From: a virus
Taxonomy: Duplodnaviria > Heunggongvirae > Uroviricota > Caudoviricetes
Direction: 5' to 3' (one strand)
DNA: 64,000 bases
IMG/VR virus record: IMGVR_UViG_2875697941_000001
Shown: positions 46,453 to 51,156 of the stretch, in pieces
Layout: every line of letters starts with the position of its first letter
How positions within the stretch are numbered: position 1 is the first letter of the stretch
Program-made: the position numbers and the translations under genes
The notes under the pieces: generated by a model
What the model saw: only the letters and a program-made list of their open reading frames with translations
Databases searched by the model: none
What the model was told of the DNA's origin: nothing

Positions 46453-47454
46453 TTAAGGCTTCGGCTTTTTATCGAGGCTCTTTCTAAGGATATGCCCAAT
46501 CATCCTGTCGAGTTCTTCCTGTAACTCTTTTGAGAGTCGATTAAACTCATAAGAAAATGCACGGCCTTTCACGCGCTTCCTTGCAAAGCGATCCTTGTCC
46601 TCAAATTTCCATAATTCAGTAACTACGGACTTATCTTTAGAACCTTTATCCGTGAGTAGTGAGGCTTCCTTTGTTATCAAGCGCAGGATTTTATTTTTAA
46701 CTTCATCTTCGGCCATTTCTTCAATGGATAAGATGTCGTTTATTTCCGGGGATATGTTTTGAATAAGCTGATCAAACTCTAAATTCTTGTTCCCCATTTC
46801 GTCGCCAACAGCACAAAGCGTTTTGTAGTCCGAAAAGGTTAATTCCGACTGCACAGGGAAAAGGGCGACTAATTCTTCCGGAGCACTCGCTGCCTGGAGA
46901 GCACGCGTGACCTTCGCCTGAGACAGCCCTTCTTTGGCTGCAATATCCTTCTGACTCATCCCATCATTTTTCATTCGCATCAAACGCAGACCTATTTCTC
47001 GAATGCTGTGCTGCAATGCTGTCTGAACGTCTTTCGCTAAATTTTGCGCTTCCTGAACGCTGATCTCCTGGTCCGTGACTAAAACCCGCAACCCTACGTT
47101 CTCTAAGATGGCAGAAGCTCGACGCCGGGAACCATCCAAAATTTCAATTTTCCCTGTAGCCCGTCTAACACCTATTGCAGGGTAAAATTGCTGATGCTTA
47201 ATAGTGCTTCGGATACTTTTTAATGATTTTGGCGTAAGAGATGCCTGGTCACGCCCGTTGTTATGCTGATCAACAAAGGTATCGCTTTCTACCTGGTTCG
47301 GAGGTATTACCTCTTCAATAAATGTGGCCTGGCGACCAGTTGATAACTTGAATACCTGCTCGACTCGATCGCCAGAGGCTGAAGAACTATCAAATCCGCT
47401 TAATATTGAAGGATTAAGGGTTCGCCCAATTGTTGGTCTGTTTTTCTTTGACAT
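46453..47454 (-). CDS. parB: Partition protein ParB, 333 aa
   Basis: Size, position between parA and parS. Confidence 0.85.
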   Translation of the reverse strand: MSKKNRPTIGRTLNPSILSGFDSSSASGDRVEQVFKLSTGRQATFIEEVIPPNQVESDTFVDQHNNGRDQASLTPKSLKSIRSTIKHQQFYPAIGVRRATGKIEILDGSRRRASAILENVGLRVLVTDQEISVQEAQNLAKDVQTALQHSIREIGLRLMRMKNDGMSQKDIAAKEGLSQAKVTRALQAASAPEELVALFPVQSELTFSDYKTLCAVGDEMGNKNLEFDQLIQNISPEINDILSIEEMAEDEVKNKILRLITKEASLLTDKGSKDKSVVTELWKFEDKDRFARKRVKGRAFSYEFNRLSKELQEELDRMIGHILRKSLDKKPKP

Positions 47455-47470
47455 GGGGGTTTCTTACTCC

Positions 47471-48667
47471 TCAGTTAGATCTGATAAATTCAATACGGTC
47501 AAAAACTGCTTTAGCAAAATCTTCCGCGGCAATTCGCGCGTTCTTCAATGCATCAGCACTACCAACATACGTTGCCGGGTTAGCTGAAATAACAGTGTCA
47601 AAAGACTCGCCACAGCGTTCAAAACCGTCAAGGCGAGGGAGGACGACATCGAGCATATCCCCACCGAACACTTCTTTAGCCAGGCTATGGCAATACTTAT
47701 GGTCTGCCTTGTTACTCAATTTGGACATAAAACCAATGTTAGTCGCAAGCTGGCACTCGCAGCCTTCATCCGAAATGAGTTTCACCAACTCAGGAAGGCG
47801 GGCAACGTATTTAAGCGATGAGTGGAAATCAACCGTTGCAGGCGGCAGAGGTGTAAACAGTATATTGGCCGAGGCCAAAGCATTTTTCAGGAAGGCGTCA
47901 AGGTGAGGACCACTATCAACGAGGATAAAGTCATAATCGCTCTTCAGCTTATCAATCACATTTTCTTTCAGGACAGCATGGATGTTCTGACCCGGTAGAT
48001 GCTCATTGCACAGCTCTCTCCAATCGGATGCAATAAAGGCATCGTCAATCGACGCAGGCATAACGTCAACCCCAGGTACAACAGAAGGAACAATAAACTC
48101 CTCTAACAGCTCTTCACGGCTTACATTCTGCAACATAGCCTGTGCAGATGTTGCGTTTACGATACCAATAGAGTGTTTATGGCTTAAAAACATCGTTGCT
48201 GAAGATTGCGGATCAAGGTCAATAACCAGAATCCTTAAATCCTCCATAAGAAGATGAGGGTGAGCACGCATTGCATGCGCCAGAGAAACCGTCGATACAG
48301 TTTTTGACACACCGCCTTTAAGATTGGAGATGAAAATCACATACGCTTCGCTGTAGCGATCCCGGTATTTTGGCACTCCGCGATGTTCATATATGTCAAT
48401 GATGTTCTGAATTGACATCGCATATTTCATTGAAGAGCCAGCAGGGCGTTTATCGAAAACATAACCCTTTTCTTCCATTTCACTTACGGCATAGTCAACG
48501 TTCGCTCGAGTCAGTAGAGGCAATTTTGCCAGTGCCGCTTTCGCATAGACCTGGTAAAACTCGTTCGCGTGTAGCTCATCCTTTTGCAACTGTACTTGTT
48601 CAGTCAGAACATTGAGCATTCTGTTTGCTCTTTGAGCAACCTTGTGAAGCTGGCTGGAATCACTCAT
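47471..48667 (-). CDS. parA: Partition ATPase ParA, 398 aa
   Basis: Deviant Walker A KGGVSKT; N-terminal extension typical of type Ia ParA; upstream palindromic operator-like sequence at ~48700-48770. Confidence 0.85.
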   Translation of the reverse strand: MSDSSQLHKVAQRANRMLNVLTEQVQLQKDELHANEFYQVYAKAALAKLPLLTRANVDYAVSEMEEKGYVFDKRPAGSSMKYAMSIQNIIDIYEHRGVPKYRDRYSEAYVIFISNLKGGVSKTVSTVSLAHAMRAHPHLLMEDLRILVIDLDPQSSATMFLSHKHSIGIVNATSAQAMLQNVSREELLEEFIVPSVVPGVDVMPASIDDAFIASDWRELCNEHLPGQNIHAVLKENVIDKLKSDYDFILVDSGPHLDAFLKNALASANILFTPLPPATVDFHSSLKYVARLPELVKLISDEGCECQLATNIGFMSKLSNKADHKYCHSLAKEVFGGDMLDVVLPRLDGFERCGESFDTVISANPATYVGSADALKNARIAAEDFAKAVFDRIEFIRSN

Positions 48668-48805
48668 CGAAAGTCATCCTTTATGCTGTATTTTTGAATT
48701 TACTTAAAAATGCTGCATAAAATAATAATGTATGCACAGATGCTTGTACATAGCATTCTCTGCATGTTTGGTTCATTTTGCACGATTGAGAGTTACAAGG
48801 AGGAC

Positions 48806-48830
48806 ACAAAAAAGCCCCGTTCAGGGGCAT
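48806..48830. terminator. Rho-independent terminator after the T5orf172-like gene
   Basis: Hairpin GCCCC-GTTCA-GGGGC followed by TTTTTTG on the minus strand. Confidence 0.55.
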
Positions 48831-48835
48831 CAGTG

Positions 48836-49645
48836 TTATTTGCTAAGAGCAGCGAATAATCGTTCGAAATCGATAGTATCTATAGCACGCGTAAGCGCCG
48901 GAAGTTCAGCCTCAAAGTACCCGTGTCGATCGTAAAAGAAGGGACCGAAGAGCGAGGCATGTTGGATTCTACTTCGCCCCAGCCCGGACACACAGTTAAG
49001 CCCATTACCGGCTAAAAGGCTAAAAAACTTCTCTGGATTATCGTGGTAAAGCTGGGAATCAATGGTGGCGGTTAACTCTTCCATAGGGAAGCACACCCGC
49101 CTTGTCTCCCAGGGATATTTAGTCCGAAGCATAAACATTGCTTTCAGCAATTCACATTGAGCGCGGATCGCGTCCGGTTCATAGCCAGATATGGAGACAT
49201 AAGCCATGTCCCTCATTCCTGCGTCATCTTTGAAAGTCACGATAGAAGTAACATCCAGCTCTTTTTCGAAAGAGCGAGCAGCATCTACTGGACGCTGAAG
49301 TAAATCATTCGACTTAATGCGCTCGAGAATCCCTCCCCACATATCATTTAGATATTCGATATGAGCCAAAACCTTATCAAGACACTCTCGTGTAAACCAT
49401 TCAGTATGCCCGCCACCGGCGCTTTTCTCCCACGGCGCATTCCAGGGGAAAAAGGTTGCGTGTAAAGCCCGCTCAAGATTAACTATTGCCAATCGCGTAC
49501 CACGATAGACCCGTGAAAGCGCAAAATCGGGACTCACTTGTAGCCCTTTAAACCGTGCCAATGGACCACATGAAATGCCGATTTTAAAAGTATCTCCATT
49601 CTCCGGCACCAGAACGTAGAGGTAGTGTTGTTTCTCTTCTTGCAT
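48836..49645 (-). CDS. T5orf172/GIY-YIG-like domain protein, 269 aa
   Basis: N-terminal pattern HYLYVLVPENGDTFKIGIS...R...HTEWF fits the T5orf172 motif layout; own terminator; lies between incA-like iterons and the parA promoter. Confidence 0.5.
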   Translation of the reverse strand: MQEEKQHYLYVLVPENGDTFKIGISCGPLARFKGLQVSPDFALSRVYRGTRLAIVNLERALHATFFPWNAPWEKSAGGGHTEWFTRECLDKVLAHIEYLNDMWGGILERIKSNDLLQRPVDAARSFEKELDVTSIVTFKDDAGMRDMAYVSISGYEPDAIRAQCELLKAMFMLRTKYPWETRRVCFPMEELTATIDSQLYHDNPEKFFSLLAGNGLNCVSGLGRSRIQHASLFGPFFYDRHGYFEAELPALTRAIDTIDFERLFAALSK

Positions 49646-49678
49646 ATCAATACCACTGCTTGATGAGAACCGCGCAAA

Positions 49679-49935
49679 TGTTGACTATGCGCGAAAGTTA
49701 ATGTGAATAGTTGACTATGCGCGATGTGACTACAGTCAAAAGTTGACTGTAGTCGATTTAACTCCACCAAAGATCGACTATGTAAGATATTGTCGGGAGA
49801 AACGTTGACTATACGCGATGAAATGACCCTAAAAGCCATCTCAATAGCGACTTGCAGAATATTGACGCCAGCAAAAATCCACCAGCGTCAACGAATGTCG
49901 CCTATAGTCAACTTCTCGCTATCGCATATAGTCAA
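49679..49935. repeat. incA-like iteron cluster downstream of repA
   Basis: At least 7 copies of TTGACTAT/ATAGTCAA-containing ~19-bp repeats in both orientations. Confidence 0.6.
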
Positions 49936-49937
49936 TA

Positions 49938-50822
49938 TTATGGATTGCGCTTATGGATCTGGAAGCCGATTTTCCTGCCGTTTTTTATCTCTGAAAATTT
50001 AAGATATTCAATAGCTTCCAAATCTTTCATGGCTTTTCTGATAACGCTATTTTGCACGCTAACGGATGATTTGAGATTAAGCCTTGCTCTAAGGCGCTCA
50101 ATGCTGACAGGTGCCGGGTTGGCGGGTAGAGCCTCAAAGAATGTATACAGTACCTTGGCCGTCTCTTTGCGCCCGAGCTTATCCAGCATCTTCAGCTTCA
50201 GGATTCGCTTATAGTCAACATAGTAAAGTTCAGATAGCTGTTTCTGCGGCTGGATCTCGATAACATCAAGCTCGGTATTCAGGCTGCTATATGCCAACAA
50301 GTTGACGTTAATGTTATTGAGATGACCTTTTGCTGCCGGGAAGCGGAATTTGACAACTGTCTGCTGAATGCGTGTCAGAGAGTCATCAATACTTTTACGG
50401 AACGCCTTTGAAAGGCGCTTACGTGGATAGCCGCATCGATCGGCAAACTCGGAGAATGGCAGGGTGATTATGCCGTCATCATCAGGTGCGTAGTCAAACA
50501 ACGCGGAGGTTATGCCCACCCACACCTTAAAATCAGTATCCATATCCAGGCGTGGACCATGAATTTCAATTCCCTCATAGCCTTCCTGCTCAACAATTTT
50601 GAGGCTTGATAGTTCTTCGGTTGCGTTCGTTGTGTTTGTAGTAACTGACGATCCGCGACGTAGTGCCACATTGGTAGATTTTAAGGTTGGCACAAACACA
50701 CCTAAGCGCAACAAAGCGATGGGTTGTATAGTGCTATTGTTATTGGGTTTCAGGCTGTGGATTTCTCCTGTATTTCCTGCAACTTCTTCAACGCTAAGGA
50801 AGCCTTTATTTTCTTCCGGCAT
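49938..50822 (-). CDS. repA: Plasmid replication initiator RepA (P1 RepA family, divergent)
   Basis: ATG 50822 with GGAG RBS (track TTG 50879); segments TIQPIALLRLGVFVP and GPRLDMDTDFKVW resemble recalled P1 RepA; iterons on both sides. Confidence 0.7.
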   Translation of the reverse strand: MPEENKGFLSVEEVAGNTGEIHSLKPNNNSTIQPIALLRLGVFVPTLKSTNVALRRGSSVTTNTTNATEELSSLKIVEQEGYEGIEIHGPRLDMDTDFKVWVGITSALFDYAPDDDGIITLPFSEFADRCGYPRKRLSKAFRKSIDDSLTRIQQTVVKFRFPAAKGHLNNINVNLLAYSSLNTELDVIEIQPQKQLSELYYVDYKRILKLKMLDKLGRKETAKVLYTFFEALPANPAPVSIERLRARLNLKSSVSVQNSVIRKAMKDLEAIEYLKFSEIKNGRKIGFQIHKRNP

Positions 50823-50900
50823 CGTGGTTTCTCCATATGTGGCGCGGCCTGGCGTCATCTGGATTGCAGTTATCAACAACTGTGAATAGTCAGGCTCTAA

Positions 50901-51005
50901 AATCGCGTACAGTCAATGTTTCTGTCGCGTATAGTCAACAATAAATCGCGTGCAGTCAACAATAAATCGTGCACAGTCAACATAAAATCGCGTATAGTCA
51001 ATGTT
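50901..51005. repeat. incC-like origin iterons
   Basis: Five direct 19-bp repeats AAATCGCGTRYAGTCAAYR spaced 22 bp. Confidence 0.7.
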
Positions 51006-51126
51006 GATCCCATTTCAGGCCAGAAATGGCGCGGCTTACAGCGATCCGGGATCTTCTTTGGATCTTCCTAGGTTCTCTTTGGGATCTGTTTATTGGATCT
51101 ATGCTGTGGATAAGTTGAATAAACCG
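51006..51126. other. Plasmid origin core: GATC cluster plus DnaA box
   Basis: Six GATC sites within 51006-51099 and DnaA box TTATCCACA (minus strand) at 51106-51114, next to the iterons. Confidence 0.65.
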
Positions 51127-51156
51127 GCCAACAAAGCCGGTTGGAAGGAAGCCATA

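Follow-up and report, generated by a model that had tools for sequence, protein, structure and literature searches.

A T5orf172-class nuclease-like gene at the edge of the p0111-type replicon cassette of P1-like phage-plasmids

The stretch of viral DNA analyzed here (64,000 nucleotides, hereafter the window; IMG/VR record IMGVR_UViG_2875697941_000001) is a P1-like phage-plasmid. Between the iterons of its replicon and the parA promoter it carries a gene that, judged from its sequence, probably encodes a DNA-cutting enzyme of the T5orf172 class of the GIY-YIG superfamily. P1-like elements have two interchangeable replication modules, and this gene is a standard, dispensable passenger of one of them; its homologues occupy the same slot next to three types of RepA. 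That it is a free-standing homing-endonuclease-like gene (HEG) of the T5orf172 class, placed directly after the last incA iteron, is a reading to which we give about an even chance. Both the gene and the cassette are already in databases, the literature mentions the gene as an unknown ORF, and assigning its domain is routine. In the literature that we searched, we found no mention of a slot kept with three RepA types, of a boundary location in two backbones, of a cleanly empty site, of the predicted winged-helix C-terminal domain, or of the HEG-like pattern of decay.

The nuclease gene and the exchanged replicon cassette

The interval from just upstream of the parA start codon to the repA stop codon (48668 to 49937) contains a single convincing ORF, at 48836 to 49645 on the minus strand, the same strand as repA and parA-parB. 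The features of the region are as follows.

46453 to 48667, minus strand: parA-parB operon, encoding proteins identical to those of P1
48668 to 48769, minus strand: P1-type parA promoter/operator region, common to P1 and outside the cassette
48770 to 51018, minus strand: p0111-type replicon cassette (oriR iterons, repA, incA-like iterons, nuclease gene, terminator), delimited by blastn against P1
48804 to 48828, minus strand: predicted intrinsic terminator of the nuclease gene, a hairpin of 5 G-C pairs and a T-run, read from the sequence
48836 to 49645, minus strand: 269-aa ORF with a T5orf172/GIY-YIG nuclease domain and a predicted C-terminal winged-helix domain (PF10544, PHROG 2876, AF2 model)
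48839 to 49297, minus strand: C-terminal domain, residues 117 to 269, which models as a winged helix
49301 to 49645, minus strand: N-terminal nuclease domain, residues 1 to 115, marked by invariant residues in 15 homologues
49680 to 49936, copies on both strands: incA-like iteron array, six copies, between repA and the nuclease ORF
49938 to 50822, minus strand: repA, p0111 type, Rep_3 family (Pfam Rep3_C and Rep3_N)
50903 to 51002, plus strand: five oriR iterons with 21-bp spacing, from the iteron search

The ORF reads as the initial annotation had described it. Its N terminus is MQEEKQHYLYVLVPENGDTFKIGISCGPLARFKGL...GGGHTEWF (also written HYLYVLVPENGDTFKIGISCGPLARFKGL...GGGHTEWF), matching the T5orf172 pattern; it lies between the incA-like iterons and the Ppar-like region; and it has its own terminator, which begins 8 nt past the stop codon with the hairpin GCCCCTGAACGGGGC and continues into TTTTTTGTGT (48828 to 48814, minus strand). 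The ORF is a real gene, kept in about 400 plasmids with a dN/dS of 0.31, below 1, which RefSeq labels “GIY-YIG nuclease family protein.” Neither a sigma-70 consensus scan of the minus strand across the gap between repA and the ORF nor manual inspection of the iteron-proximal 80 nt gave a promoter for the nuclease gene, and no terminator was found between repA and the nuclease gene. From these two results we conjecture that the gene may be read through from the RepA-repressed repA promoter (PrepA) and co-transcribed with repA.

In a blastn comparison, the window was 99.6% identical to P1 (NC_005856) up to position 48769 (P1 61315) and 98.7% identical from 51019 (P1 62807) onward, with nothing alignable from 48770 to 51018. 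A cassette of 2249 bp stands here in place of 1491 bp of P1 (61316 to 62806), that is, the whole IncY repA/iteron block, and the exchanged unit comprises all RepA-specific parts (repA and both iteron arrays) together with the nuclease gene and its terminator. The left junction lies 66 nt past the nuclease stop codon and 19 bp upstream of the −35 element of P1 Ppar. The right junction falls inside oriR, 17 bp beyond the last iteron; the Dam-site/DnaA-box half of oriR is common to the IncY and p0111 types, and the iteron half is type specific. Outside the cassette, positions 48668 to 48769 are 97% identical to P1 61214 to 61312, annotated as Ppar and the ParA operator, and parA follows at 47471 to 48667, with ParA and ParB 100% identical to the P1 proteins. 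p0111 is a known replicon type of P1-like phage-plasmids (PMC9603915), and the window is a standard p0111-type element. The two types share their layout of five origin iterons, a Rep_3 repA, downstream control iterons, and parAB, whereas between incA and Ppar the p0111 type has the nuclease gene and P1/IncY has none.

This comparison modifies two earlier statements and upholds a third. The initial annotation held that incA directly abuts parA in P1; there is indeed no gene between incA and Ppar, but a spacer of about 190 bp separates them. It also described the ORF as extra DNA inserted into the P1 maintenance core, which is correct in that the ORF is extra relative to P1, although “inserted” is misleading for a whole replicon block that was replaced. 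Its suggestion that the gene is replicon associated held up, the gene being a component of the 2249-bp cassette that travels with the RepA type.

Twelve matches to the iteron TCGCGTATAGTCAAC (up to 3 mismatches) were found in the window, every one within the replicon, a count that none of 100 shuffles reached. The incA-like array has four copies on the minus strand (49680, 49710, 49742, and 49804) and two on the plus strand (49898 and 49922), and 35 nt separate the end of its last iteron from the ATG of the nuclease gene. A near-perfect iteron (TCGCTTATAGTCAAC, 1 mismatch) also lies within the repA coding sequence at 50205 to 50219, apart from both arrays; the repA gene of a related contig described below, L002, has the same context (gttgactataagcga). 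The window RepA is 41 to 43% identical to P1 RepA and 83 to 84% identical to L002 RepA. In the mechanical ORF list, repA opens at TTG 50879 (313 aa), but ATG 50822 (MPEENKGF..., 294 aa) is the likely start, since the L002 and P1 RepA proteins align only from there.

Domains of the predicted nuclease

The initial annotation had called the product nuclease-like and had proposed a profile search for T5orf172, which bore the call out. Pfam T5orf172 (PF10544) matched residues 8 to 85 at 26.8 bits (E=7.6e-6; cut-off, 20), while a match to MUG113 stayed below its own cut-off. PHROG 2876, annotated as function unknown, aligned end to end with the protein (E=1e-192), and phrog_681, annotated as “endonuclease,” matched the N-terminal domain (E=1e-9). 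A search of NCBIfam with the protein gave no matches. Across 15 homologues, Y10, K21, G23, R31, E58, H62, and the E82-W-F motif are invariant, and by motif position Y10, R31, and E82 would correspond to the GIY-YIG catalytic tyrosine of strand 1, the arginine of helix 1, and the metal-binding glutamate. The T5orf172 nuclease Odn needs the glutamate equivalent to E82 in order to cleave (PMC8263062). The AF2 model of the 269-aa protein has a pLDDT of 73, and the N-terminal domain is predicted to adopt the GIY-YIG alpha/beta fold; the structure models rest on four sequences.

The C-terminal domain (residues 117 to 269) has sequence homologues confined to four P1-like lineages, and Pfam gave nothing in residues 100 to 269. 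Modeling gives reasonable support for a winged-helix DNA-binding domain, and the resulting layout of a nuclease plus a separate predicted DNA-binding domain is that of phage HEGs (PMC10448857). In the model-based comparisons, the longest structural alignments, of 97 to 103 residues, were with the WH1 domains of iteron initiators (6h24_B, pPS10 RepA, RepE, and RctB), and the initiator Pi aligned over 80 residues; generic winged-helix proteins scored equally high (TcpK, 5.9; Bd2879, 6.0). We rejected a sequence kinship of this domain with RepA or with any solved structure: BLASTP against the RepA of the same element gave E=3.2, hhalign of the domain profile against the RepA profile gave a probability of 0.2%, and a PDB profile search returned no similar solved structure. 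By these searches, no sequence homology links the predicted DNA-binding domain to that of a replication initiator. Because generic winged helices score equally and RepA shows no sequence or profile similarity, we keep the description “Rep-WH1-like” as a lead only.

The initiator alignments bear on the main rival to the homing reading, namely that the protein is an Odn-like, origin-directed nuclease for plasmid competition, which would destroy rival P1-like plasmids or satellites to the benefit of its host element. Its winged helix would mimic a Rep initiator domain and bind the iterons of the rival or iteron-bound RepA. Odn of ICP1 (Gp88; Barth et al. 2021, PMC8263062) fuses T5orf172 to RepA_N and cuts the PLE origin in an iteron-dependent manner, and fusions of T5orf172 to initiator domains arose several times (PMC10448857). 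If the Rep-WH1-like lead holds, Odn and the Odn-like proteins of coliphages Inny and Muut would resemble the window nuclease in combining T5orf172 with an initiator-like DNA-binding domain, and they share with it a tie to iteron origins and to modular RepA/origin exchange. The nuclease gene always adjoins an iteron array, and which type of nuclease is present covaries with the type of RepA. Against such a competitor-directed function stand a C-terminal domain that lacks a sequence link to RepA and is poorly conserved between lineages with common iterons, and a gene that is often inactivated. We regard it as doubtful.

Distribution, conserved slot, and decay

In PLSDB, the cassette has 404 matching records and is in one piece in 391; among the rest, those listed are partial or truncated at record starts. 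About 398 records have a p0111-type RepA and 401 enterobacterial records have the nuclease gene, and in viral and genome loci repA adjoins the nuclease gene in every case (45 of 45). The gene is present in essentially every plasmid with the p0111 RepA type, and no gene-less p0111 cassette was found in PLSDB. The initial annotation had named universal presence with this RepA type as evidence against an insertion, and the near one-to-one linkage means that the gene is not a sporadic insertion. Intermediate RepA classes were also considered and rejected; with L002 RepA as the query, all 398 related records fell into one identity class. The cassette also occurs outside intact P1-like elements, as about 108 of the 404 cassette-bearing records are typed as mobilizable or conjugative or greatly exceed 100 kb in size, and a preprint describes p0111 repA in a chromosomally integrated S. 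Agona plasmid without phage genes.

An exhaustive HMMER search of 1.8 billion representatives gave only three near-full-length relatives (P0004, P0010, and P0011), and about 70 further proteins shared the N-terminal domain only. P0004 is 44% identical to the window nuclease (only 32% in the C-terminal domain), and P0010 and P0011 are 25 to 28% identical in an alignment of the four proteins and 28 to 30% identical in pairwise comparison (about 40% in the N-terminal domain). Scans of GTDB genomes, IMG/VR, and JGI metagenomes recovered only p0111-type copies, as did a tblastn search of the phage collection with P0004, and PLSDB has no record of the P0010 or P0011 type. The known cassettes with homologues number only four, three of which come from single SRA-derived contigs: L002, L003, and L004 (ERR2144811_21, SRR6505940_35, and SRR12532267_3423), which encode P0004, P0010, and P0011, respectively.

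In all three contigs the gene lies between the repA/incA iterons and parA. The RepA proteins of the P0004, P0010, and P0011 cassettes are 83%, 42%, and 49% identical to that of the window; L003 RepA is of the P1 type (83% identical to P1 RepA), and L004 RepA is a third type, 43 to 49% identical to the others. Nuclease homologues therefore occupy the same slot with three RepA types, and no more than a few tens of nucleotides separate the ATG from the last iteron in any of the four cassettes (about 35 nt in the window and L002). The three contigs are P1-like lineages with about 65 to 77% nucleotide identity to P1 and differing replicon cassettes. In PLSDB, L002 comes closest to two Salmonella plasmids (85%). 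In L004, ParA is longer (401 aa) and ParB shorter (321 aa), with identities to the P1 proteins of only 57% and 43%.

The L002 and L003 backbones, about 70% identical to P1 in nucleotide sequence, are 96 to 98.6% identical to each other; what sets them apart is again a cassette of this kind, whose junctions lie 83 and 62 nt beyond the nuclease stop codons. Together with the junction between P1 and the window, these place the gene at the edge of the exchanged block in two independent backbones, and in both comparisons the nuclease changes type together with RepA.

Among elements of the P1-type RepA clade, L003 has the gene, and P1 and Salmonella plasmid NZ_CP146848.1 lack it; the RepA proteins of L003 and NZ_CP146848.1 are 90% identical. 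The repA-parA intervals of P1 and P1-like relatives, whose alignment had been proposed at the outset, place the P1 site among those without the gene. In the three-way alignment, a shared last incA iteron is followed by about 950 bp found only in L003, consisting of a short leader, the ORF, and a tail of about 45 nt, and then by shared sequence into Ppar. An insertion-like origin is therefore real at a deeper level, P1-type replicons having or lacking the gene as one block of about 950 bp. Such a present/absent polymorphism at one fixed site with collinear flanks is a HEG trait. At about 6900 to 6925 of L003, the segment found only in this contig has a 3' end (…ACACACAGCACAT/CCTCCCTG) that looks like the end of the P1-type iteron (CCAGCACACAT), and the junction may include a partial iteron duplication. 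A tblastn search of the P1 repA-parA spacer with all four homologues revealed no gene relic (best E=5.6), so that the P1 site may be either ancestral or the product of a loss.

The distant relatives that share the N-terminal domain lie in unrelated accessory regions of mobile elements, some near Mrr_cat, WYL, and Ymh (L006) or GmrSD_N (L007). These neighborhoods, and a fast-evolving nuclease gene on a mobile element, would suit an anti-phage defence or superinfection-exclusion nuclease carried as phage-plasmid cargo. This role, which the initial annotation had floated, found no support: PADLOC-DB v2 returned 0 families for the protein at E up to 1, so that no PADLOC model matches it, and the gene is a single one without a partner, occupies a fixed slot in the replicon cassette rather than the known variable cargo regions of P1-like elements, and is often inactivated. 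We consider a defence function very unlikely.

The nuclease gene evolves under weaker constraint than its neighbors, with a dN/dS of 0.31 among 44 copies compared to 0.02 for repA, 0.001 for parA, and 0.05 for parB. Among 69 assessable loci from IMG/VR, GTDB, and metagenomes, some perhaps duplicated between collections, 59 were intact and 10 (14%) were disrupted by five different lesions: S112*, W68*, Q228*, a 1-bp deletion, and an insertion of the IS200/IS605 family. The S112* allele, common to five loci, would leave the nuclease domain without the DNA-binding domain. Q228* is carried by the named Salmonella phage-plasmid SJ46. In an IMG/VR locus (L051, 5295 to 7057), the gene is split by a 1763-bp element with the loss of 229 bp of the gene; the element codes for a 389-aa TnpB-like ORF and a 102-aa IS200-type TnpA-like ORF. 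Relaxed selection and repeated inactivation show that replication, partition, and the phage cycle do not require the gene, yet it is somewhat constrained, and degenerating alleles under relaxed constraint are a further trait of HEGs. Between lineages, the nuclease is 44% identical (32% in the C-terminal domain) where RepA is 83 to 84% identical.

Two other explanations meet these data. The gene could be a decaying relic that has no present activity and hitchhikes with an essential replicon, for which its disruption in 14% of copies, the relaxed selection, and the failure to find a promoter of its own would speak. However, dN/dS is well below 1, 59 of the 69 copies are intact, and the catalytic residues are kept between lineages that are just 25 to 44% identical, and we think this very improbable. 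Alternatively, the protein could be a domesticated, non-cutting DNA-binding regulator, similar to CapR, that acts near incA/Ppar and tunes copy number or par expression. The position of the gene between the copy-control iterons and the par promoter would fit such a role, as would its probable co-transcription with repA, with no promoter or terminator found between them, and proteins with CapR homology are among the fold matches. CapR of a Vibrio PLE satellite is likewise a T5orf172-related protein on a mobile element, but it is reported to tune gene expression of the inducing phage, whereas no specific regulatory target is indicated for the window nuclease and its catalytic residues are retained. 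With the Tyr/Arg/Glu set invariant in 15 homologues, the same kind of replicon and par operon operating without the gene in P1 and its Salmonella relative, and a dN/dS of 0.31 combined with frequent knock-outs, SJ46 included, we judge a regulatory role highly doubtful.

The homing reading and known systems

The reading as a HEG-like gene is drawn from the combination of the two-domain layout, the intergenic slot beside essential genes, the exchange boundary, the present/absent site, and the unstable alleles. Variable presence, unstable alleles, and positions beside essential genes and at exchange boundaries are the grounds on which T5orf172 HEGs have been called in ICP1 and other phages, and such genes have been argued to mobilize adjacent essential cargo (PMC10448857). 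The free-standing T5orf172 HEGs of ICP1 and T5-like phages (Barth, Dunham & Seed 2023, PMC10448857) carry T5orf172 and a DNA-binding domain at opposite termini, as here, and likewise occupy intergenic slots by essential genes at the boundary of an exchanged block, vary in presence, and have alleles broken by stops, frameshifts, or insertions. Unlike the ICP1 genes, the gene described here sits in the maintenance replicon of a phage-plasmid rather than in lytic structural or replication operons, is a single copy rather than a member of an expanded family, and is predicted to have a winged helix in place of CapR, DUF723, DUF4397, or RepA_N. For the ICP1 genes, as for this one, homing is a proposed activity. 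The T4 GIY-YIG enzymes (I-TevI and the Seg proteins) belong to the same superfamily, have a modular layout, and follow the free-standing HEG logic with co-conversion of flanking markers proposed here; by contrast, the window nuclease falls in the T5orf172 subfamily, with KIG replacing YIG, and the DNA-binding modules differ.

Under homing, a P1-like plasmid without the gene, or with another cassette, would be cut near the incA-Ppar junction upon co-residence, and repair templated by the nuclease-bearing copy would copy the nuclease gene into it. The nearest homology on the far side would lie past repA and the origin iterons, in the shared part of oriR, and because the repA-side homology begins only there, the whole iteron-repA-incA block would be co-converted alongside the nuclease gene. 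The gene would in this way favor its own transmission and drive elements to switch between the IncY and p0111 replicon types. In a more specific version, which we hold to be rather unlikely, the protein is a replicon-linked, iteron-array-directed homing enzyme that would cut rivals, repair then converting the ori-repA-incA block; its Rep-WH1-like domain would reach the end of the iteron array through iteron DNA or by docking on RepA.

Several points weigh against homing. Cleavage, a target site, and homing itself are putative for this protein and its close relatives; ordinary recombination in flanking homology suffices for cassette exchange; no empty p0111 cassette was found in PLSDB, so that the gene may be inherited vertically with its cassette; the P1 spacer contains no relic of the gene; and the comparison includes only four cassettes with homologues, three of them single SRA-derived contigs.

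Among the common carriers of ESBL and mcr genes in E. coli and Salmonella are the P1-like phage-plasmids, which are typed by the dichotomy between IncY and p0111 replicons. If the nuclease drives or polices cassette exchange, it would provide a mechanism for switching incompatibility type on a constant phage backbone, and the idea of nuclease genes as markers of exchange boundaries, drawn from lytic phages, would then apply to plasmid replicons too. Beside Odn, it would add a further T5orf172 nuclease tied to iteron-type replication modules. In the iteron-directed version, “replicon homing” would explain why two or more interchangeable replicon types occur with the same sharp junctions on near-identical P1 backbones. 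If the gene is only a passenger HEG, the finding is an ordinary one about a widespread, already annotated gene of unknown function.

A further point against homing comes from sequence diversity. A sliding-window analysis of 45 p0111-type loci showed a mosaic, with no dip or step at 48770 or 51018 and no sweep signature at the cassette edges. Diversity peaked at 0.03 to 0.046 in two stretches of the window, 50700 to 51450 (the 5' end of repA, oriR, and upfA) and 52200 to 53450 (upfB and upfC), and was 0.004 to 0.006 over most of parA, in a region of fine-scale mosaicism.
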